DNA of 64,000 nt from Escherichia coli (lineage in GTDB: Bacteria > Pseudomonadota > Gammaproteobacteria > Enterobacterales > Enterobacteriaceae): assembly GCF_024700885.2 (NCBI RefSeq), contig NZ_CP117016.1. One strand, given 5' to 3'. Shown piece by piece: positions 24,210-50,577 of the stretch. Both the position numbers and the translations under genes were made by a program. The notes below the pieces were generated by a model that ran no database searches, had not been told where the DNA came from, and saw nothing but the letters and a program-made list of their open reading frames with translations. Within the stretch, counting starts at the first letter, position 1; each line of letters starts with the position of its first letter.

Positions 24210-24524
24210 GACAACCTCCCTATTCCATGAGCAAGCAAAAACAATATATGCCGGATAAAATACGGCGTGTATTGCGGTTATACAACCGCGTTTAGCGAGA
24301 GCTAAACAAGATTATTTACACTGAATGCAAGATTGTACGGTCATGGAATAACAACATTCCCGCAAATTGCACTTTTGTTTTAGCGATCGCATTTTTTTTG
24401 CAAGATTGTTGGCAAGGAAAACAGCTTGCTCCGTCGAAAACCCCGCACCGCTATCGCACACTATTTTCAGGCCATTTTTACCTTCCATCGGAGATGGTTC
24501 CGTATGCGACTCACAGGAGAAATC

Positions 24525-42096: not shown

Positions 42097-42405
42097 TTAG
42101 CCGGGCTGTGTACCAGTCTTGCGGGGCTTTTGAGAAGACGATGTGTTTTCTGGCCCATCAGGGGAGAGAGAGGGACTGATCTGCCCAGCAGCCTCATTCG
42201 TTTTTCCTGTCATAAGCCAATTCATGTACTTAAAAAAGCGAGGGTGATTAACAATCTTGATAAGCACTTCGCCCCCTATGTTTTCAATCCGCCCCGTTTC
42301 ATAACGACGCAAAGTGCCGATAGGCACATCAATCAGGCCGCAAAATTCTTCGCGCGTTAAATCCTCTGATTCACGAATCACTCTAATTTTTTCACCGATA
42401 AGCAT
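42097..42405 (-). CDS. P2 C-type immunity repressor
   Basis: 102 aa from MLIGEKIRVIRESEDLTREEF; resembles recalled P2 C (…SEKIVLMRKSEYLSRQQL…QTPQFTKYTLWFMT…) in sequence and position upstream of int. Confidence 0.75.
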   Translation of the reverse strand: MLIGEKIRVIRESEDLTREEFCGLIDVPIGTLRRYETGRIENIGGEVLIKIVNHPRFFKYMNWLMTGKTNEAAGQISPSLSPDGPENTSSSQKPRKTGTQPG

Positions 42406-42444
42406 TGACAGTGTTCCTATAAGTACACTAAGCTTGCGCACAAG

Positions 42445-42462
42445 GTGTACTTATAAGTACAC
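42445..42462. promoter_or_regulatory. operator-like perfect palindrome GTGTACTTATAAGTACAC in the C/cox switch region
   Basis: 18-bp perfect palindrome between divergent repressor and early operon; TATAAGTACAC recurs as a direct repeat at 42418-42428. Confidence 0.55.
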
Positions 42463-42501
42463 CAAGTCACAAACAACCACAGATAGCGCAGGTTATCACA
42501 C

Positions 42502-43143: not shown

Positions 43144-43422
43144 ATGACCAAAGAGCATGCACAAGGTGTATTTATCCGTTTTATTGATTTTCGCGGTGAA
43201 CTGTTATTGCGCGCATCAGCTATTGATGGAGTTGTCCCATCAGAAAAAAATGCAGCTACTTACGTTTATCTGAACGGCACGCGCCTGACCGTAGAACTTC
43301 CGTACCAGACTGTACACGGAATCATTAGCGAAGCTGAAAAAGCGCGCCAGGCTAATGGCAATGAACCCTATATCGAAATTATTTGCATGGATTCAGAAGC
43401 TGAAATCCAGAAAGCAGATTAA
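43144..43422 (+). CDS. hypothetical phage early protein
   Basis: 92-aa ORF from MTKEHAQGVF, tightly spaced in the operon. Confidence 0.5.
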   Translation: MTKEHAQGVFIRFIDFRGELLLRASAIDGVVPSEKNAATYVYLNGTRLTVELPYQTVHGIISEAEKARQANGNEPYIEIICMDSEAEIQKAD

Positions 43423-43433
43423 AGGGTGTTGCA

Positions 43434-43676
43434 ATGGACAAAGAATATAAAACACTCATCAACAAAGCACTTGAGCGTTTTTATTTTCGCTTAAGTGCAT
43501 CAGGCGCTCATGCTGAACGTGCAGCCCGTGACTCATTGACTAGGGCAATCCGGAGTCTGTATGACGTGGCTTTTTACGCTGATGATCTGGATGCACTTAA
43601 CGAACTTTCCGAGCTGATCTGTGCCGCAGAATGCGGGGAGCATATTGAACCGTATAAGCTGGGGAATATTGCATGA
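43434..43676 (+). CDS. hypothetical phage early protein
   Basis: 80-aa ORF. Confidence 0.5.
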   Translation: MDKEYKTLINKALERFYFRLSASGAHAERAARDSLTRAIRSLYDVAFYADDLDALNELSELICAAECGEHIEPYKLGNIA

Positions 43677-43786
43677 GTATATTTATCTCATGGCTTGTCC
43701 TGATTATTTCGGTGGTCTGCGCCATTGGGATTATGCAAATTATTCATTCAGTAAAAAAGATTGAACGCATTTTCACTGGCGAATAA
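43673..43786 (+). CDS. small hydrophobic peptide (37 aa), translationally coupled
   Basis: MSIFISWLVLIISVVCAIGIMQIIHSVKKIERIFTGE; ATGA overlap with the upstream stop; single TM helix. Below the ORF-track size cut-off. Confidence 0.35.
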   Translation: MSIFISWLVLIISVVCAIGIMQIIHSVKKIERIFTGE

Positions 43787-43873
43787 CAGCGCAAATAAAA
43801 ACCCTAGGTTAAATAAGAAAATGTAAAAACAATCCGCATTCGCGGAGGTATTCGCACACGCCCAGGAGGCGTA

Positions 43874-44077
43874 ATGGCAATTAAGCATTTTCCTGTCGTT
43901 CGTTTCACTTCCAGAGGACGTGAATACGAAGTCGACGAACGCCTGATTACCACAATCGACAAACACCGCTCAGAAAAGGATGCACACCACATCTATCTCA
44001 CTGACGGTACTTACTTCTGCGCCACTAATGTGGCGCGGGTGAATCTTATCCGACAGGTACAGGATCCACGCAAATGA
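43874..44077 (+). CDS. hypothetical phage early protein
   Basis: 67-aa ORF. Confidence 0.45.
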   Translation: MAIKHFPVVRFTSRGREYEVDERLITTIDKHRSEKDAHHIYLTDGTYFCATNVARVNLIRQVQDPRK

Positions 44078-44292
44078 GCAGGAGAAGAATCACTCGCAGA
44101 CATCACCGCACACACCTGAATTCCTCAGCAACGCTAAAGGCACTTATTCAAAGCGAGATCGGTGATTTCTTCGCGGGAGTTGGCTCACCAGGTGAACCAG
44201 AAACACCAGAAGCGATGCAGCGTGAGCTCATGATACGCATAGATAACACTTTTGATTTCTTCTACAGCATGCACGGAATTAAACAGAAATGA
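44074..44292 (+). CDS. hypothetical phage early protein
   Basis: 72-aa ORF overlapping the previous stop by 4 nt. Confidence 0.45.
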   Translation: MSRRRITRRHHRTHLNSSATLKALIQSEIGDFFAGVGSPGEPETPEAMQRELMIRIDNTFDFFYSMHGIKQK

Positions 44293-44400
44293 ACCTCAAG
44301 CCAGCAATAACTATTCGTAGAACGCCAATTTCTGTAACCGACCGCTTCTGAGTTTTTTGGCAGGAAGCCTTCGCACATCCTTAGTAGAGAGAATTGCAGC

Positions 44401-44790
44401 ATGATTGACGCTCATGACTTCACAAGATGGGTGCGCACACAGGACACCCGTCTGGCTCCCATTCTTCGGGGATTATTTGATCTCTACATTCGTGGTCGTG
44501 ACAACAGAGCACGCACCACAAAACCGGAGAATGTGGATACCCTTTATTTCACAGTAGACGACTGCTACCGCGTGGACTTCACACCACACGGACTGGCGTT
44601 GCACTGCCTGACACCGCACGGCGAATCACTGCTGGCGTATTACGACTCCCCGGCCTCCGTATTTGCGGCAATGCTGGCGCATCGCACTGCTGGCGGGTGT
44701 GCCTCGCTGAGTGAATACACCGCTGAGTTTAACCGCCTTTCCGCCCTCTTCTCGCAGGAGTGGCAGCGCGTGACGGGATACCAGCCATGA
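44401..44790 (+). CDS. hypothetical phage early protein (P2 B-gene position)
   Basis: 129-aa ORF immediately upstream of and overlapping the A gene start. Confidence 0.5.
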   Translation: MIDAHDFTRWVRTQDTRLAPILRGLFDLYIRGRDNRARTTKPENVDTLYFTVDDCYRVDFTPHGLALHCLTPHGESLLAYYDSPASVFAAMLAHRTAGGCASLSEYTAEFNRLSALFSQEWQRVTGYQP

Positions 44791-47627
44791 GTGAGTTTGC
44801 ATGGAGCTGGAATGAACCACGGCCAGCCATTGATCCGGCCAGATTTACGGAGCGCAGGCAGGAAACTGAAACCGACCTGCAACGCGCCATCCGTTACTAC
44901 CTTGAGGCAGACAAAAAGGCCCAAGAAGAACAGGAAGCGAAAGAGGAAGCCTTTTTCGCACAATCCGCCATGGGTAAAAAACTCATGGCATCCCTTGAGG
45001 AAGCCGGACAGCGTGAAAAGCTGGCACAAAGCATCATCAGTAAGCGCCGGGCAACAGAACAAGACCCGGTGGCCCGTGCCTTTGCCACACTGAAGGTGCT
45101 TCCCGTTTATCTGCGAGAACCCCTGAGCCGCCACCTCTCTTTCCTGCGCAAAAAACAGGAAGCCGATCGCCGGAAAGGCAAAAAGAGCTGGCAGGCGGAA
45201 CGCTATGCACGCGGAACCCTGCGCAAAATATTCGAACGTCTGGATCGCACTGACGGACGCTGGCTGACACAGGGTTATCGCTCCATTGCCGGACGCGAAC
45301 GCCTGGACGATTTGCTTTACCTGCCGCAGCTCAACAAACACCAGGTACAGACACTGGCCACCATGACGGCAGCAATGTTCAGTAGCACATTCGAAAAACT
45401 CTGCGATGGCTTTGGCGCGACCGATGGTGAGCTGACCATGGATGTAACGCTGAAGGCGTATCAGATGCTGGCCCGCATGGCGTTACATCTGCACGCCATG
45501 CCTCCACATTATGACGCACTGACAACAGATAGAGATCGGAGGAACGAACCGGACACAGAGCTGCTGCCAGGCGCAATCCTTCGCCTGACCTGTGCTGAAT
45601 GGTGGAAACGCAAACTGTGGCTATTACGTTGCGAGTGGAGAGAAGAACAACTCCGCGCCGCCTGTCTGGTTTCCAGAAAAACATCGCCCTATCTGAGCCA
45701 GGACGCGTTAAGCGAGTTTCGCGCACAGCGCGAGAAAACACGCGATTTCCTGAAAGGTTTCATGCTGGAAAACGAAGACGGGTTCACGATTGATCTCGAG
45801 ACAGTGTATTACGCGGGAGTAAGTAACCCGGTTCACCGTAAGGCAGAAATGATGGCCACCATGAAGGGGCTGGAACTTCTGGCCGAGGCCCGTGGTGACA
45901 AAGCGGTGTTTCTGACTGTCACCTGCCCGTCAAAATACCACGCCACAACAGAGAACGGTCATCCGAATCCCAAATGGAACGGGGCCACCATGCGCGACTC
46001 CAGCGATTACCTGGTTAACACGTTTTTTGCGGCGGTCCGCAAAAAACTGAACCGCGACGGTCTGCGCTGGTATGGCATCCGCACGGTGGAGCCTCACCAT
46101 GACGGCACCGTGCACTGGCATATGATGGTCTTTGCTCATCCGGAAGAAATCGACAGCATCGTGGCCATCACCCGCGATATTGCCATTCAGGAAGACCGCC
46201 ACGAGCTGGGCAATGATATTACTCCGCGCTTTAAGGTGGAGTATGTCGACGGCTCAAAAGGCACACCAACCAGCTATATCGCGACCTACATCGGAAAAAA
46301 CCTGGACAGCCGCGCCGTGGATGGCATCGACCCGAAAACGGGCAAACCACGCGTTGACCACGAAACAGGTAAATCAATGGCCGAGAGCGTGGAGCGCGCC
46401 ATCGGCTGGGCGCGCCTTCACCGGGTCCGCCAGTTCCAGTTCTTTGGCATCCCCTCCCGTCAGGTGTGGCGTGAACTGCGCCGCCTTGCCAGCCAGATGG
46501 CACGCAACCCGGAAGGCCCGCAACGGCTGAAGGATGACGCAATGGATGCGGTACTCGCTGCCGCTGATGCCGGGTGTTTTGCCTCCTACATTGAAAAACA
46601 GGGTGGCGTACTTGTTCCACGCAAGGACTACCTGATTCGCACCGCCTACGACCTCGCAGATGAGCTGAACGATTACGGCGAACAGAGCGTACAGATTTAC
46701 GGGATCTGGTCACCACTCATCGGGGAATCCTCCCGTGTGTGCACGCACCCGGATAACTGGAAGCTGGTAAGACGTAAACCGGAAGCGGAAGACAGCACCC
46801 GCGAAAATGATTTTGACCTTCAGGGCGGCCCTGCCGCCCCTTGGACTCGTGGCAATAACTGTCCCCGTGTACAGGAAACAGACAACAACGGGACAGAACA
46901 GCCGGAAGAACGGCCAGCACCGTGGCCGCAGCTCCCTGACGGCGTTGAAGTGAACGAATGGATGCATTCACTGAAACGGCACGAACGCCGGGCGCTGATG
47001 CGTTCGCTTCGTGACAAACAGGCAAAAAACAGCAGCGATGAAATGCAGAACTGGACACAGAGCCGCAAACAGCCACAGCCTTTACCTGATAACCACGAGT
47101 TACTCGCTAAAGAATGGCGGGAGTCTGCTGAATCTCTCGGCCTGCATATTGGTGAACAGCAGATGCAGCACCTGTTACGGGGCGGCAGTCTGTACGTTGA
47201 CGGCAGCATCATTGCACCGCAGGGATTTGAAATTGTACGCAAACCGGATACCCGCCCGGACAGCCGAATCACGCAGCTCTGGCAACGCCTGAGCCGTAAT
47301 CACGGCGTAAGCAGCACGGAGATCCGCCATAACCCGGTCGCCAGCTATCTGGAACAGCTGGGGGCATCAGACCCTGAAGCCGCCGCACGCCTGGCATCCA
47401 CACTTCAGCAAGACCAGAACACCATGAAAACCCCCGTTACCGTGCTTTCTGACATGCTGCGCGCCATCCGTGACGCAGAGCACGCACAGAGAATCAGTGA
47501 AACCACTGAACGCGCCCACCGCAAAGCAGACCTGCTGCGGGGTAGCCTGACCAGTGGAAACAAAAAACAGACAGAAACGGGACTCACAAATCCCGTAAAT
47601 GAGCAAAAAACGTGCCGCGATATATGA
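44787..47627 (+). CDS. P2 gpA-type rolling-circle replication initiator with long C-terminal extension
   Basis: 946 aa from MSEFAWSWNEP; HUH-type motif VHWHMMVFAH and downstream Tyr-containing region (YIATYIGKN) typical of P2/186 A proteins; last 200 aa or so is low-complexity. Confidence 0.8.
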   Translation: MSEFAWSWNEPRPAIDPARFTERRQETETDLQRAIRYYLEADKKAQEEQEAKEEAFFAQSAMGKKLMASLEEAGQREKLAQSIISKRRATEQDPVARAFATLKVLPVYLREPLSRHLSFLRKKQEADRRKGKKSWQAERYARGTLRKIFERLDRTDGRWLTQGYRSIAGRERLDDLLYLPQLNKHQVQTLATMTAAMFSSTFEKLCDGFGATDGELTMDVTLKAYQMLARMALHLHAMPPHYDALTTDRDRRNEPDTELLPGAILRLTCAEWWKRKLWLLRCEWREEQLRAACLVSRKTSPYLSQDALSEFRAQREKTRDFLKGFMLENEDGFTIDLETVYYAGVSNPVHRKAEMMATMKGLELLAEARGDKAVFLTVTCPSKYHATTENGHPNPKWNGATMRDSSDYLVNTFFAAVRKKLNRDGLRWYGIRTVEPHHDGTVHWHMMVFAHPEEIDSIVAITRDIAIQEDRHELGNDITPRFKVEYVDGSKGTPTSYIATYIGKNLDSRAVDGIDPKTGKPRVDHETGKSMAESVERAIGWARLHRVRQFQFFGIPSRQVWRELRRLASQMARNPEGPQRLKDDAMDAVLAAADAGCFASYIEKQGGVLVPRKDYLIRTAYDLADELNDYGEQSVQIYGIWSPLIGESSRVCTHPDNWKLVRRKPEAEDSTRENDFDLQGGPAAPWTRGNNCPRVQETDNNGTEQPEERPAPWPQLPDGVEVNEWMHSLKRHERRALMRSLRDKQAKNSSDEMQNWTQSRKQPQPLPDNHELLAKEWRESAESLGLHIGEQQMQHLLRGGSLYVDGSIIAPQGFEIVRKPDTRPDSRITQLWQRLSRNHGVSSTEIRHNPVASYLEQLGASDPEAAARLASTLQQDQNTMKTPVTVLSDMLRAIRDAEHAQRISETTERAHRKADLLRGSLTSGNKKQTETGLTNPVNEQKTCRDI

Positions 47628-47703
47628 AGCACGCACAAAACAGGCAAAAGAGGGATTTCAGAATCCCGTAAACGGTTAATTAATCAACATAAGGAAAATC
47701 GAC

Positions 47704-48663
47704 ATGAAAATTTGTATCGACGACGGCTCCACCAACATCAAGCTGGCATGGACTGAGAACGGCGAACGCCGCAACGCCATCAGCCCGAACAGCTTCAAGT
47801 CGGAATGGTCTGCGCCGTTCGGTGGCACGCAGCCCGCGAACTACATGCTTGATGGCGTGCGCTATGGTTTTGATCCGGTCAGCGATCGCTTTATCCAGAC
47901 GACCGACACACAATACCAGTACAGCGATGTGAATGTCATTGCCATTCATCACGCGCTGGTCAAATCAGGCATCACGCCACAGGAGGTGGATGTGGTTGTC
48001 ACCCTGCCACTGAGCGAGTATTTCGACACAAACGCACAGCCGGACATGGCCAACATCAACCGCAAAAAAGCAAACGTTATGCGCCCGGTGGAATACCAGA
48101 ACGGCGAAGCATTCACTATCCGTAATGTACGGGTTATGCCTGAATCCATTCCGGCTGGCTTTAAAGCACTGGCTGACATGAGTCCGTTTGAATCCCTGCT
48201 GATTGTGGATTTAGGTGGAACCACGCTGGATGTGGCAAAGGTTCAGGGACAACTGGCAGGTATCAGCCAGGTGTTTTGCGATCCACACGTAGGCGTTTCC
48301 CTGATGGCCGATGCAGTACTGTCGGTGATGGCCACTAACGGTATGCGTACCAGTCACCACATCGCCAATACCATTATCGAACATCGCCATGATGAAGCCT
48401 GGCTGCGCCAGCACATCCACAATGACGCGCATTACGCCAGCCTGATGGCGGTTATTCGTGAAAAGGAAGAAACACTGAAACAACGCGTGATCCGCGCGCT
48501 GGCGGGTTTTTCGGGTTACGGGCGGGTGATGGTTGTCGGTGGCGGGGCGGAGATTGTGGCACCCGCTATCCGCGAAGCCTGCGGAGTTAATGCGACTTTC
48601 ATCGCGGACGGGGTGCCACAGTTTGCTCTGGTTAATGGGCTGTACGCAATGGACAAGGAGTAA
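47704..48663 (+). CDS. ParM/StbA-like actin-type ATPase
   Basis: 319 aa; actin-fold motifs IDDGSTNIKL (phosphate 1), DLGGTTLDV (phosphate 2), VVGGGAE (adenosine); collinear over full length with recalled plasmid R1 ParM (MLVFIDDGSTNIKLQW…YSDVNVVAVHHALL…VMPESIPAGY…DLGGTTLD…GGGAEL). Confidence 0.8.
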   Translation: MKICIDDGSTNIKLAWTENGERRNAISPNSFKSEWSAPFGGTQPANYMLDGVRYGFDPVSDRFIQTTDTQYQYSDVNVIAIHHALVKSGITPQEVDVVVTLPLSEYFDTNAQPDMANINRKKANVMRPVEYQNGEAFTIRNVRVMPESIPAGFKALADMSPFESLLIVDLGGTTLDVAKVQGQLAGISQVFCDPHVGVSLMADAVLSVMATNGMRTSHHIANTIIEHRHDEAWLRQHIHNDAHYASLMAVIREKEETLKQRVIRALAGFSGYGRVMVVGGGAEIVAPAIREACGVNATFIADGVPQFALVNGLYAMDKE

Positions 48664-48667
48664 ACCA

Positions 48668-48979
48668 ATGACGACACCAACCAGGCGGATAAGTTTCTAT
48701 CTGAAGCCTGCGGCCGTCAAGAACGAAAGCGAAGCATGCGCCTGGCTGGACAGCCTTACACCGGAAGCCCGCAAAAGCGGCCAACGCGTGGCTTTTCTGG
48801 CCGGGCTGGCACTTCTGAAAATGAATCCGGCAGAGGCTTACCGACTGGCTGCATGGGCTGACGATGAGGCGTTATCAGTGACACAAACCAGGACAGAACG
48901 CCCCCTGTCACAGCCAGTACCAACCGCACAGATAACCAGTCAGATGGCCGGAAATATCAGGGCGTTATTTCCTGAATAA
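48668..48979 (+). CDS. ParR-like DNA-binding adaptor
   Basis: 103 aa from MTTPTRRISFYLKPAA...; N-terminus resembles recalled R1 ParR (RRTIAFKLNPDV…LDSIP.GERS…AALTAGLALY); starts 5 nt after the parM-like stop. Confidence 0.65.
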   Translation: MTTPTRRISFYLKPAAVKNESEACAWLDSLTPEARKSGQRVAFLAGLALLKMNPAEAYRLAAWADDEALSVTQTRTERPLSQPVPTAQITSQMAGNIRALFPE

Positions 48980-48986
48980 CACAACG

Positions 48987-49006
48987 TCAGGGCGAGTTCG
49001 CCCTGA
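48987..49006 (+). terminator. hairpin TCAGGGCGA-GT-TCGCCCTGA after the parR-like gene
   Basis: Perfect 9-bp inverted repeat; no strong T-run, so terminator function is tentative. Confidence 0.35.
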
Positions 49007-49042
49007 TCTCCATCTCAGAACATAAACAAGAAGAGCGACTTA

Positions 49043-49426
49043 ATGAGCAAAATCAACTATCAGGCATTACGTGAACGTTATTCACCTGCACCAGTACCAA
49101 AATGCCCTATTTGCTGCGAAGAAATGTCAATTCAGCGAATATCTGGAGCACAGGTTGTTTATGGCTGCTCCGGTTATGGTGATGATGGAGATTTCAAAAT
49201 TGGTCGAACTCTTGCCGACGAACATTATGAAAAATCACGCGTAACAGTGTTGGATGTCGGGGATCCTGAAGTATTGGCGCTACTTGATTGGCTGGAAACC
49301 AAAGACAACCGAATCGCTGAACTGGAAAAAATCGCCACTGACTATGCACTTAAATTCCAGAAAGCACAGGACGCATTAAAGTACGCCGCTTTGCTGCATA
49401 GCAGGTCAGCGCAGCTACAAGACTAA
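49043..49426 (+). CDS. hypothetical protein with N-terminal Cys motif (CPICC...GCSGYG) and C-terminal coiled coil
   Basis: 127-aa ORF; lower GC than the phage backbone by eye; no family recognised. Confidence 0.5.
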   Translation: MSKINYQALRERYSPAPVPKCPICCEEMSIQRISGAQVVYGCSGYGDDGDFKIGRTLADEHYEKSRVTVLDVGDPEVLALLDWLETKDNRIAELEKIATDYALKFQKAQDALKYAALLHSRSAQLQD

Positions 49427-49454
49427 CTTAAAGCGGAAGATTAATACATGGTGA

Positions 49455-49481
49455 GTCGGGGTAATTTGTTTTTATCCCGAC
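49455..49481. terminator. bidirectional terminator hairpin between convergent island genes
   Basis: GTCGGG...CCCGAC stem with a T-rich loop and flank, between the plus-strand 127-aa gene and the minus-strand membrane gene. Confidence 0.45.
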
Positions 49482-49516
49482 AAATAAACAAAAAAGTGGA
49501 CTATCTCTGTAGTATC

Positions 49517-50047
49517 TTATTCAGCATCGTCTCGTGCAGTCTGTGCATACGTCACAACAACGCCCAATGCATTAGTTTTCTTTTCAACATAGATAATATT
49601 GTCATATTCATAGTTACCATACGGATAGCAAATAAGAATATTTTTATGCAGATCGGGATCATCAACAAACGCTCCGGAACAGCTTCTTGAACTACCGGAT
49701 GTATACTCATACGGTGCAACATATGATGATGTTACTCCTGGTAAAAAATAAGTCACCATCATAAGAGGGATAATCAGGAATATCCCTGTAAGAATGCAAG
49801 AGCCAGCATAAACCTTCAGGTATTCCGACAGTCCTTTCCAGCCACTTTGCTTCACTACCCCCCTCTTCACCAGAAACAAGGAGAAGAAAAAGGACATACC
49901 CATACTACATAAGATGTAATAATTGGATATACGCGAATTAAGATATGTAATCCTGTAGATATCTGCCCTCCACCAGTAAAAGAGGAAAATAATCCCTAGC
50001 ACTGAAACAGTCATGCAAATCAAATAAGGATATGAATCTTTCTTCAT
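49517..50047 (-). CDS. hypothetical low-GC integral membrane protein (moron-like)
   Basis: 176 aa; three predicted TM segments (YLICMTVSVLGIIFLFYWW, YYILCSMGMSFFFSLFLV, CILTGIFLIIPLMMVTYFL) then a roughly 70-aa soluble C-terminal domain; markedly AT-rich compared with flanking phage DNA (by eye). Confidence 0.6.
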   Translation of the reverse strand: MKKDSYPYLICMTVSVLGIIFLFYWWRADIYRITYLNSRISNYYILCSMGMSFFFSLFLVKRGVVKQSGWKGLSEYLKVYAGSCILTGIFLIIPLMMVTYFLPGVTSSYVAPYEYTSGSSRSCSGAFVDDPDLHKNILICYPYGNYEYDNIIYVEKKTNALGVVVTYAQTARDDAE

Positions 50048-50095
50048 GTCTTGCGCTCATTAAAATTTCCCTGCTACGAACAAATTTACCATCCG

Positions 50096-50250
50096 TTTTT
50101 TGCGCAGAAAACAGCACGATGCACACTGCACGATAGTGCACAAATTTGCACAATTTTTTTGAACGACTTTTTACCCTTCCGGCCCGCATGGCGGCTGGAT
50201 CCGTCAAGGATCCGTGCGTGCACAAAAAAACGCGTTTTTTCTGCGCGCAG
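50096..50250. repeat. structured non-coding region: inverted repeats GCGCAGAAAA/TTTTCTGCGC, TGCACA iterons, GGATCCGT x2 at 11-bp spacing
   Basis: Seen directly; lies where the cos/packaging site of P2-like phages maps (between the accessory island and the portal gene). Confidence 0.5.
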
Positions 50251-50526
50251 GTGACGGGGGAACAGCCCGCGTTTCAGGGGGTAAATAGTATTCCCTGAGC
50301 GATGTCGCAGCGACATAACAGAATGGCCATATTTCTCACGCTGAGCGTGAAAAAGATGTGAGGGCTTTTGATTTGATGGGGTGAAAGGTAAGGCCGTCAA
50401 AATCGAACTGAGGCGGTGAGAACATGCAGTCAGCGCGGTGGGATTGCGTAAGAGTCTGACCGTCGATGATGGTAATAAACAGGAAAGCGTCGTGAAATTA
50501 TCTGATTGATACAGGAGCTGGAGAGT

Positions 50527-50551
50527 CGGGGCATAAATTTTTTATGCCCCG
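50527..50551. terminator. strong hairpin CGGGGCATAAA-TTT-TTTATGCCCCG downstream of the portal gene
   Basis: Perfect 11-bp inverted repeat immediately past the minus-strand Q stop; probable terminator of the Q-P transcript. Confidence 0.55.
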
Positions 50552-50577
50552 GCGAAGCAGCGGACAAGCGAAGCGCG

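Follow-up and report, generated by a model that had tools for sequence, protein, structure and literature searches.

The textbook example of actin-like segregation in plasmids is ParMRC, with centromeres described as arrays of many iterons in which the par promoter is embedded. The Escherichia coli DNA analysed here (the window, a stretch of 64 kb) carries a parM-parR pair within a P88-like, P2-type prophage, and two short hairpins are present where the replication gene A of the phage adjoins parM, raising the question of what these hairpins do and whether they serve the partition genes beside them. The first-pass annotation had proposed two answers, tandem terminators of the early operon or ParR-binding centromere-like sites. 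A literature search returned no paper on the parMR genes of P88-like or P2-like phages.

Anatomy of the repeat units

Two copies of the 11-mer AATCCCGTAAA, 73 bp apart and each contained in a hairpin (GGGACTCACAAATCCC and GGGATTTCAGAATCCC), are present as the first-pass annotation had described them, one in the last codons of gene A and the other in the gene A-parM spacer of 76 nt. The search for further copies that it had proposed detected the exact 11-mer only twice within the window. An exact 11-mer pair alone is unremarkable, six pairs within 100 bp being observed in the window compared with 1.3 in shuffles. Each copy is, in addition, the right arm of a 20-bp dyad located within a 39-nt imperfect direct repeat (29 of 39 positions matching, 74% identity, spacing 73), which is the sole such case in the window and was observed in none of 50 shuffles. 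Similarity between the units is limited to 39 nt of the 73-nt period, the other 34 nt being at the random level. Coordinates are collected in Table 1.

Table 1. Features of the gene A-parM junction, in window positions.
Feature	Position	Strand	Description
gene A	44760..47627	+	P2-type replication endonuclease; Pfam Phage_GPA 4.7e-130; stop codon 47625-47627
repeat unit 1	47561-47599 (39 nt)		A-rich 16-nt 5' flank, 20-bp dyad and AAA; within last codons of gene A
dyad 1	47577..47596		ACGGGACT-CACA-AATCCCGT; family consensus ACGGGATT-CACA-AATCCCGT
hairpin of dyad 1	47579-47594		GGGACTCACAAATCCC
invariant cores of dyad 1	47579-81 (GGG), 47592-94 (CCC)		five-lineage alignment A3
11-mer AATCCCGTAAA, copy 1	47589-47599	+	right arm of dyad 1 plus AAA
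inter-unit spacer	47600..47633 (34 bp)		contains gene A stop codon
repeat unit 2	47634-47672 (39 nt)		gene A-parM intergenic region
dyad 2	47650..47669		GAGGGATT-TCAG-AATCCCGT; family consensus ACGGGATT-TCAG-AATCCCGT
hairpin of dyad 2	47652-47667		GGGATTTCAGAATCCC
invariant cores of dyad 2	47652-54 (GGG), 47665-67 (CCC)		five-lineage alignment A3
11-mer AATCCCGTAAA, copy 2	47662-47672	+	
TTAATTAA box	47676..47683	+	between unit 2 and parM ribosome-binding site; invariant columns of A3, 5/5 lineages
parM ribosome-binding site	47691-47695		AAGGA
parM	47704..48663	+	actin-like partition ATPase, 319 aa; Pfam StbA_N 2.4e-82, ParM C-terminal domain 1.1e-68
parR	48668..48979	+	ribbon-helix-helix (RHH) adaptor, 103 aa; presumed binder of the units

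Dyad 1 consists of two inverted AATCCCG cores with a centre-to-centre distance of 11 bp, and the GGG-N10-CCC cores of the two dyads begin, measured from the first G, 125 and 52 nt ahead of the start codon of parM. Across about 100 E. coli relatives, both units share as their consensus a perfect ACGGGATT-N4-AATCCCGT dyad with 8-bp arms. Thus, the window dyads are slightly degenerate, differing from the family consensus at T47583C in dyad 1 and at A47650G and C47651A in dyad 2. No further dyad copies were detected elsewhere in the 64-kb window, nor were extra half-sites when up to two mismatches were allowed, and tandem 10-11-bp periodicity was absent, self-comparison giving a peak only at offset 73. 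No promoter was detected in the inter-unit spacer, the sequence of which is not conserved between lineages, and a consensus scan of the + strand from 47000 to 49600, which may miss a weak or non-sigma-70 promoter, returned no sigma-70-like promoter.

The genes downstream are those of a type II partition system, an actin-like ATPase, ParM, followed directly by a small RHH adaptor, ParR. Window ParM matches R1 ParM (PDB 1mwk) over residues 2-316 with an E-value of 1.2e-92, and the best match to a structural model of ParR is pB171 ParR. A search for anti-phage defence genes with PADLOC returned no match for ParM, ParR or two neighbouring ORFs.

Conservation and linkage to the parMR cassette

Prophages bearing this junction are present in 1370 of 5426 complete E. 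coli genomes, approximately one quarter, and in IMG/VR the dyad pattern is essentially confined to the gene A-parMR junction. In one relative (L001), a 96%-identical A gene is followed by genes for an AAA-ATPase and an S8 peptidase; homology to the window stops at 47515 and the dyad is absent. In two others (L038 and L135), a different gene of 145-155 aa lies upstream and homology begins just before unit 1. The par cassette supplies the last ∼25-35 codons of gene A. These comparisons link the units to the parMR cassette and not to gene A. The L002 chromosome carries parMR without the units, in a 4.5-kb deletion remnant that also lacks gene A, the deletion endpoint being the 3' edge of dyad 2.

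Nucleotide diversity decreases from the loops (0.17) to the arms (0.056) and the GGG/CCC cores (0.029); within E. coli, arm diversity is equivalent to that of parM synonymous sites (0.055) and only the cores are lower. ParR variants with as little as 52% overall identity retain the N-terminal DNA-binding part together with the same dyads, and the N-terminal strand TRRISFYL, the DNA-binding end, is invariant in the P88-like prophage lineage. Homologues of the ParR N-terminus were not detected on plasmids, matches being restricted to integrated, degraded or whole P88-like genomes. A double-dyad scan of 100,044 species genomes identified, besides E. albertii, unrelated taxa, mainly Desulfobacterales MAGs and Rufibacter; many of these matches occur as several regularly spaced copies per contig, and we read them as probable CRISPR-like repeat arrays.

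Diverged P2-like prophages retain the arrangement. Exactly two GGG-N10-CCC units each are observed in Hafnia L211, Plesiomonas L263 and Hafnia L264, spaced 72-73 bp apart and located 124-131 and 51-59 nt upstream of the parM start codon, and ParM of L263 and L264 is 62-63% identical to window ParM. GGG-N10-CCC occurs at a background of 7 per 64 kb, and none of these loci contains another pair 70-75 bp apart. The ParR strand TRR[IV]SFYL is common to the four lineages with the pair; in Serratia and Enterobacter prophages, in which the strand reads NRKISFYL, a different repeat architecture is observed. Where ParM identity is 62-63%, neither the stability of the hairpins nor the T-tails nor the reading frame is conserved. 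T-tails on the - strand are confined to the E. coli lineages and L211, and in L263 and L264 only a GGG/CCC stem of 3-4 bp with a 10-nt loop is left, the fold z values being 0.04, -0.59, -1.75 and -2.47, so that three of the four units are no better than shuffles at the usual threshold.

A 26-codon ORF on the + strand (47599-47679; MSKKRAAIYEARTKQAKEGFQNPVNG), which extends over the spacer and unit 2, was rejected both as a gene and as a frameshift extension of gene A. Comparison with P88 (two genomes) first hinted at synonymous-only change. In 57 unique sequences, variable sites are distributed 11/11/13 by codon position, a stop is present in L008 and A-run indels in other relatives, and the ORF is absent from L263 and L264. 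The protein-level repeat TG[FL]xNPVN, found in both frames, was likewise rejected as the selected feature because dyad 1 is read in a different frame in L135.

A putative ParR binding site

The centromere-like reading of the first-pass annotation gained comparative support from the linkage of the units to the cassette and from the retention of their number, spacing and position at a ParM identity of 62-63%, from which we infer that ParR would bind the units. Its caveat that a plasmid parC would normally have more iterons was justified, as only two units, equal to four half-sites, are present compared with the ten iterons of R1. Repeats upstream of parM, a feature of parC, are observed as two 39-nt units in four lineages, with far fewer half-sites (four) than known parC sites have. 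A par promoter serving as ParR operator, the other part of the parC definition, has no detected counterpart here, because the scan found no promoter between the two units and the sequence of the spacer varies among lineages. Overall, we consider it probable, with appreciable room for doubt, that the units constitute a reduced, split parC-like ParR binding site composed of four half-sites and lacking a detectable internal promoter.

Stoichiometry, looping, expression timing and biological role of a ParR-unit complex can be proposed on this basis. Each unit contains a 20-bp dyad whose two AATCCCG-type half-sites are inverted and separated by one helical turn (GGG-N10-CCC), and the two dyads lie on the same DNA face because 73 bp corresponds to about seven helical turns. 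With one ParR dimer per half-site, about four dimers would be bound and the 34-bp spacer would be looped or bent from one unit to the other, and the resulting small ParR-DNA complex may cap ParM filaments, thereby coupling an extrachromosomal phage genome to the filaments. Transcription of parMR would occur by read-through of the early lytic operon, as is probable given that no inter-unit promoter was detected and that the last codons of gene A cover unit 1. Read-through expression would in turn imply action on free phage DNA, during infection, induction or replication, and not in the repressed lysogen.

Alternative explanations

Tandem terminators of the early operon, the other proposal of the first-pass annotation, gained no support: the + strand tails of the hairpins, AAATGAGC and AAACGGTT, lack a U-tract, the scan detected no + strand terminator and parM-parR follows directly. 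Intrinsic termination in either form, at the end of the early operon on the + strand or as an antisense block on the - strand, is highly improbable. The stem-loops are stable and GC-rich in the E. coli lineages (-7 to -10.7 kcal/mol), T-rich tails follow both hairpins on the - strand and the scan flags 47596..47577 and 47667..47652. The units do not, however, stand at the end of a transcription unit, parM-parR being located on the same strand and parM beginning 31-35 nt past dyad 2 with no promoter detected. Neither is a - strand gene end found nearby, the nearest - strand ORF ending at 49517, and the scan yields 12 matches compared with 3.6 expected, mostly weak. In L263 and L264, GGG-N10-CCC is kept although T-tails and stable stems are missing. 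That the units act as RNA hairpins in the A-parM read-through transcript, either in processing or stability or by tuning translational coupling between gene A, the short ORF and parM, is unlikely. Folding on the + strand is consistent with such a role: the 6-bp window stems fold at -9.0 (ACGGGA/TCCCGT) and -7.0 kcal/mol (GGGATT/AATCCC) and the consensus dyads at -10.7 kcal/mol, with a z of about -3.2; a 151-nt region also folds at z -3.2 via long-range pairing between the two units; some arm variants are G-U compatible on this strand; and the ATG of the short ORF directly adjoins the upstream stop codon in Hafnia L211 and L135. Against it stand the weakened stems of L263 and L264 described above and the pattern of change on A3, where the six G-C pairs show no variation, 24% of cells are unpaired and changes on both sides of a pair are not above shuffles (97/500), giving no covariation support. 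Furthermore, the arm variants of unit 1 permit wobble pairing solely on the opposite strand, and a search of Rfam detected no known RNA family at E <= 1.

A 20-bp dyad is typical for many dimeric regulators, and the conserved A-rich flanks and seven-turn phasing would suit a bending or looping factor; the units may thus bind a protein other than ParR, whether from the host, such as a nucleoid or regulatory protein, or a different regulator of the phage, with the adjacency of parMR reflecting linkage only. We regard this as quite unlikely. The dyad occurs nowhere else in the prophage, making a phage-wide regulator unlikely, it disappears together with parMR when the cargo differs, and repeat architecture changes with ParR type. 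An origin recognised by the A protein was rejected because A alleles without the units exist, among them the 96%-identical allele. It is also rather improbable that the repeat is a non-functional scar, resulting from an old local duplication or a recombination joint at the left-hand end of a mobile cargo cassette. The units do lie exactly at the cassette boundary, the arms are roughly as diverse as parM synonymous sites, the L002 deletion stops at the 3' edge of dyad 2 and a similar TG[FL]xNPVN peptide is encoded by both copies in their respective frames. A scar does not readily account for the retention of two GGG-N10-CCC units, with a spacing of 72-73 bp and an unchanged distance from parM, where the surrounding DNA is barely alignable, for the confinement of similarity to 39 nt of the 73-nt period or for the lack of a conserved reading frame across dyad 1.

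Comparison with known partition and repeat systems

Known parC sites lie upstream of parM, are sometimes split into two blocks and, in R1, bind one ParR dimer per 11-bp iteron (PMC2241845, PMC5016525). R1 parC resembles the window units in its location directly upstream of parM-parR, in its homologous partners (R1 ParM being about 50% identical to prophage ParM and ParR belonging to the same Pfam family) and in its division into two blocks by a spacer, of 39 bp in R1 and 34 bp in the prophage (PMC2241845). An A-tract plus CCC is shared between the R1 iteron AAACCCAAAAA and the window 11-mer AATCCCGTAAA; the iteron is matched at 8/11 positions by the window 11-mer, at 10/11 in L211 and at 11/11 by the right arm of L264 unit 1. 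With an R1-iteron PWM, the window copies score only 5.7 and 3.6 bits, ranking 293 and 990 among ∼128,000 positions. R1 parC differs in other respects: R1 has 2 x 5 tandem direct 11-bp iterons whereas the prophage has 2 x 1 dyads, that is four inverted half-sites; the R1 spacer holds the par promoter whereas the prophage spacer holds the gene A stop and no detectable promoter; prophage unit 1, unlike R1 parC, lies inside a coding region; and the host replicon is an integrating P2-like phage rather than a plasmid. For parC of pSK41 and pB171 par1, ParR has the same RHH fold as prophage ParR, and ParR dimers of this type bind short repeats one helical turn apart (PMC5016525). Unlike the two prophage dyads, the 10-bp repeats of pSK41 parC form a continuous array (PMC5016525).

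Among integrating phages, a ParMRC-like system has its best functional precedent in the alpS/AlpA/AlpC system of Corynebacterium prophage CGP3. This system, which pairs an actin-like filament protein with an adaptor that binds DNA repeats beside the operon, is required for efficient phage DNA replication after induction (PMC4446434). Its alpS site contains 24 short TTAAnnG repeats compared with two dyads in the prophage (PMC4446434), and AlpC and AlpA differ from the prophage proteins in being unrelated in sequence to the StbA and StbB families. The partition system of SXT/R391 elements is of type II (srpMRC). In omega of pSM19035, RHH dimers recognise short subsites that are direct or inverted. 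Short direct or inverted subsites are similarly recognised by the small RHH dimers of ParG at parH of TP228 (PMC3130281). Omega and ParG/parH belong to type Ib (ParA) systems and have many more subsites than the prophage; nevertheless, a pair of inverted half-sites is plausible for an RHH ParR because RHH subsites may be direct or inverted. For SXT/R391 integrative conjugative elements, an active partition system that serves the transient circular form is described (PMC4489591); in this they resemble the prophage, being normally integrated elements with a partition system, and differ from it in not being phages.

Discussion

On its left side, the mobile parMR cassette found in the A-Q cargo hotspot of P2-like phages is delimited by the units. 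Should ParR not bind them, they would represent a conserved dyad pair of modest interest. A more far-reaching proposal, which we advance tentatively and consider doubtful, is that P88-like and other temperate P2-like Enterobacterales phages possess a working actin-type segregation machine with an unusually small, two-dyad, promoter-less centromere overlapping the end of gene A, expressed only from the lytic early operon and moving or spacing free genomes during infection, induction or the period before integration. If true, this would be a function so far undescribed for P2-like phages. The binding-site reading itself, if correct, would show a ParR/ParM pair to be served by a far smaller site, with two dyads and no promoter. 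The four GGG/CCC cores would then provide a defined and easily mutated handle on the role of partition in an integrating P2-like phage, one that is very common in E. coli, O157:H7 strains included.

Results

Two copies of the 11-mer AATCCCGTAAA, each within a short hairpin, had been put forward in the first-pass annotation as possible tandem terminators of the early operon or possible ParR-binding, centromere-like sites. The 11-mer has exact matches in the window at 47589 and 47662 only, and direct reading confirmed the hairpin sequences and their placement relative to the gene A stop codon. The pair by itself is not unusual, as six exact 11-mer pairs within 100 bp occur in the window, compared with 1.3 in shuffles. 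A second pair with 73-bp spacing, TGCAAGATTGT at 24326 and 24399 (24326-24409), lies outside the prophage early region. The true repeat is 39 nt long, with 74% identity and a period of 73 bp, approximately seven helical turns, and is the sole such case in the window, with none observed in 50 shuffles. Within each unit, a 16-nt A-rich flank precedes a 20-bp dyad. For both dyads the consensus, derived from 57 unique upstream sequences of IMG/VR relatives, is a perfect ACGGGATT-N4-AATCCCGT, from which the arms in the window differ by one substitution in dyad 1 and two in dyad 2. One dyad corresponds to a pair of AATCCCG half-sites in inverted orientation, their centres 11 bp apart. No further dyad copies were found across the window, nor was 10-11-bp tandem periodicity detected at the site. 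The two A6 runs vary from 5 to 7 A among IMG/VR relatives, which puts roughly the final 10-20 codons of gene A into another frame; this reflects either errors in sequencing or a genuine tolerance for variation in the A tail.

Features of the parMR junction and neighbouring elements (window positions)
Feature	Coordinates	Strand	Remark
Repeat-containing region	42405-42465		between repressor-like and cox-like genes
Replication gene A	44760-47627	+	Phage_GPA 4.7e-130; stop codon 47625-47627
Unit 1	47561-47599		
A6 run	47562-47567		
A6 run	47605-47610		
Unit 2	47634-47672		
parM	47704-48663	+	after gene A
parR	48668-48979	+	after parM
Palindrome	48987-49006		just 3' of parR
Ead/Ea22-like gene			after parR
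Portal and terminase genes		opposite	beyond Ead/Ea22-like gene
A-to-portal stretch	47628-50577		cargo hotspot

A P2-like prophage of the P88/Xuanwuvirus type lies in the window. The segment 47350-47800 is 96-100% identical in Escherichia phages 520873, P88 and relatives, and is present in 1370 of 5426 complete E. coli genomes, nearly always chromosomally. One circular "plasmid" deposit is a single complete P88-like genome of 34.5 kb, which is compatible with an extrachromosomal phase without proving one. Cargo in the A-to-portal hotspot differs between prophages: the window has parMR and the Ead-like gene, the related locus L001 an AAA-ATPase and an S8 peptidase, Serratia L265 parMR followed by HicAB, and Enterobacter L266 a KAP NTPase. 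Elsewhere in the prophage, TTGACA...TATAAGTACAC...GTGTACTTATAAGTACAC at 42405-42465 contains an 11-mer repeated in both direct and inverted orientation, probably forming the immunity-repressor operators over the early promoter.

Natural rearrangements separate the units from gene A. In the related locus L001, gene A is 96% identical as far as window position 47515 and then has a different tail, followed by AAA-ATPase and S8-peptidase cargo, and the dyad is absent. Loci L038 and L135 encode a shorter A and an additional 145-155-aa zinc-ribbon gene upstream of parM, with homology to the window beginning only about 5-20 nt 5' of dyad 1, which in L135 is crossed by the upstream ORF in another frame. 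A defective P88-like remnant, L002 (NZ_CP085183.1), has lost window 43145-47668 including gene A, and retains parMR without the units. Matches to the dyad pattern in IMG/VR were essentially confined to this junction, the exceptions being three unrelated terminator-like ones. Combined, these comparisons assign the units to the parMR cassette, as its left end, rather than to gene A. A gene A replication origin as the identity of the units is ruled out, the 96%-identical A of L001 having no dyad.

The L002 junction lies exactly at the dyad 2 3' edge and joins a DUF4761 gene to the parM leader; HTH and PIN-domain genes follow the remnant. The perfect palindrome 3' of parR, TCAGGGCGAGTTCGCCCTGA, has 8-bp arms and a terminator-like flag on the - strand, and may be the right end of the cassette. 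The double pattern GGGATT-N4-AATCCC also matches regularly spaced arrays in Desulfobacterales, Desulfococcaceae and Rufibacter genomes (L219, L232, L233 and others), presumed to be unrelated CRISPR-like repeats.

ParR and ParM searches with contig look-ups showed that diverged P2-like prophages from Hafnia, Plesiomonas, Serratia and Enterobacter also carry parMR at this position, with A on one side and the portal gene on the other. The comparison took in four lineages, namely the window, Hafnia L211 (ParR 75% identical), Plesiomonas L263 (ParM 63%) and Hafnia L264 (ParM 62%). All four contain exactly two GGG-N10-CCC units, 72-73 bp apart, one lying 124-131 nt and the other 51-59 nt upstream of the parM ATG. 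GGG-N10-CCC occurs seven times in the 64-kb window, and in each compared locus this is the sole pair at 70-75 bp spacing. A five-way alignment shows no change in any GGG or CCC triplet of the two units, whereas the spacer and most of the arm sequence have diverged. The four two-unit lineages have in common the ParR N-terminal strand TRR[IV]SFYL; in the Serratia and Enterobacter prophages the strand is NRKISFYL and the architecture differs, the inverted arms being 14-20 nt long and separated by 26-28 nt. In P88-like prophages of E. coli, ParM identity is 98-99% while ParR ranges from 52% to 96%, divergence being limited to the middle linker (residues about 60-90). The N-terminal stretch of about 55 residues and the C-terminal NIRALFPE are both retained, and the dyads are unchanged despite overall ParR identity as low as 52%.

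Discussion

The terminator interpretation draws on T-rich tails on the - strand, which give the E. coli hairpins a terminator-like look. It was not sustained, as the + strand has no U-tract at the hairpins, and in L263 and L264 the tails are missing and arm pairing is limited to GGG/CCC. Judged by the usual threshold, three of the four units in these two loci are no more stably folded than shuffles (z 0.04, -0.59 and -1.75), the fourth scoring -2.47. In the alignment of lineages, the six G-C pairs are constant, unpaired cells make up 24% and compensatory stem changes are no more frequent than in shuffles; an Rfam search gave no match. Conservation is seen in two short sequence blocks kept at a fixed geometry, a signature of protein recognition and not of a hairpin. 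Within E. coli, diversity is 0.17 in loops, 0.056 in arms and 0.029 in GGG/CCC cores; arm diversity is no lower than that of parM synonymous sites (0.055), which makes for a weak signal at the population level.

A ParR-binding, centromere-like site is the best supported interpretation and appears reasonably probable, favoured by cassette linkage and by unit number, spacing and position kept across lineages. Type II centromeres are generally repeats upstream of the operon, continuous or split (PMC5016525). R1 parC spans 159 bp and has its 11-bp iterons in two sets of five; the 39 bp between the sets hold the par promoter, and about one ParR dimer binds per iteron (PMC2241845). The prophage site shares its location, split layout (39 + 34 + 39 bp) and A-tract-CCC motif. 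R1-type iterons, AAACCCAAAAA, were recovered from a plasmid encoding a ParM with 99% identity to the R1 structure sequence, and the other plasmid parCs examined are likewise 10-11-bp arrays in two clusters. Identity to the R1 iteron is 8/11 for the window 11-mer, 10/11 for L211 and 11/11 for L264 unit 1; however, an R1-iteron PWM scan of the window did not single out the 11-mer copies (ranks 293 and 990). Half-site spacing equals R1 iteron spacing, but the orientation is inverted. Two features of a textbook parC are missing from the site, namely many iterons and an embedded promoter, a sigma-70-like promoter scan there finding none.

Precedents for partition-type systems in integrated elements are CGP3 AlpAC/alpS, required for efficient phage DNA replication (PMC4446434), and SXT/R391 ICEs, whose circular form is described as actively partitioned (PMC4489591). 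At the prophage site, ParR dimers would occupy four half-sites, forming a small complex on one DNA face that could capture ParM filament ends. Read-through from the early operon appears to drive parMR expression, because no promoter was detected in the spacer, unit 1 extends over the 3' end of gene A and parM is not preceded by a terminator. With such expression, parMR would constitute a partition machine that acts on phage DNA in its free form and not in the lysogen.
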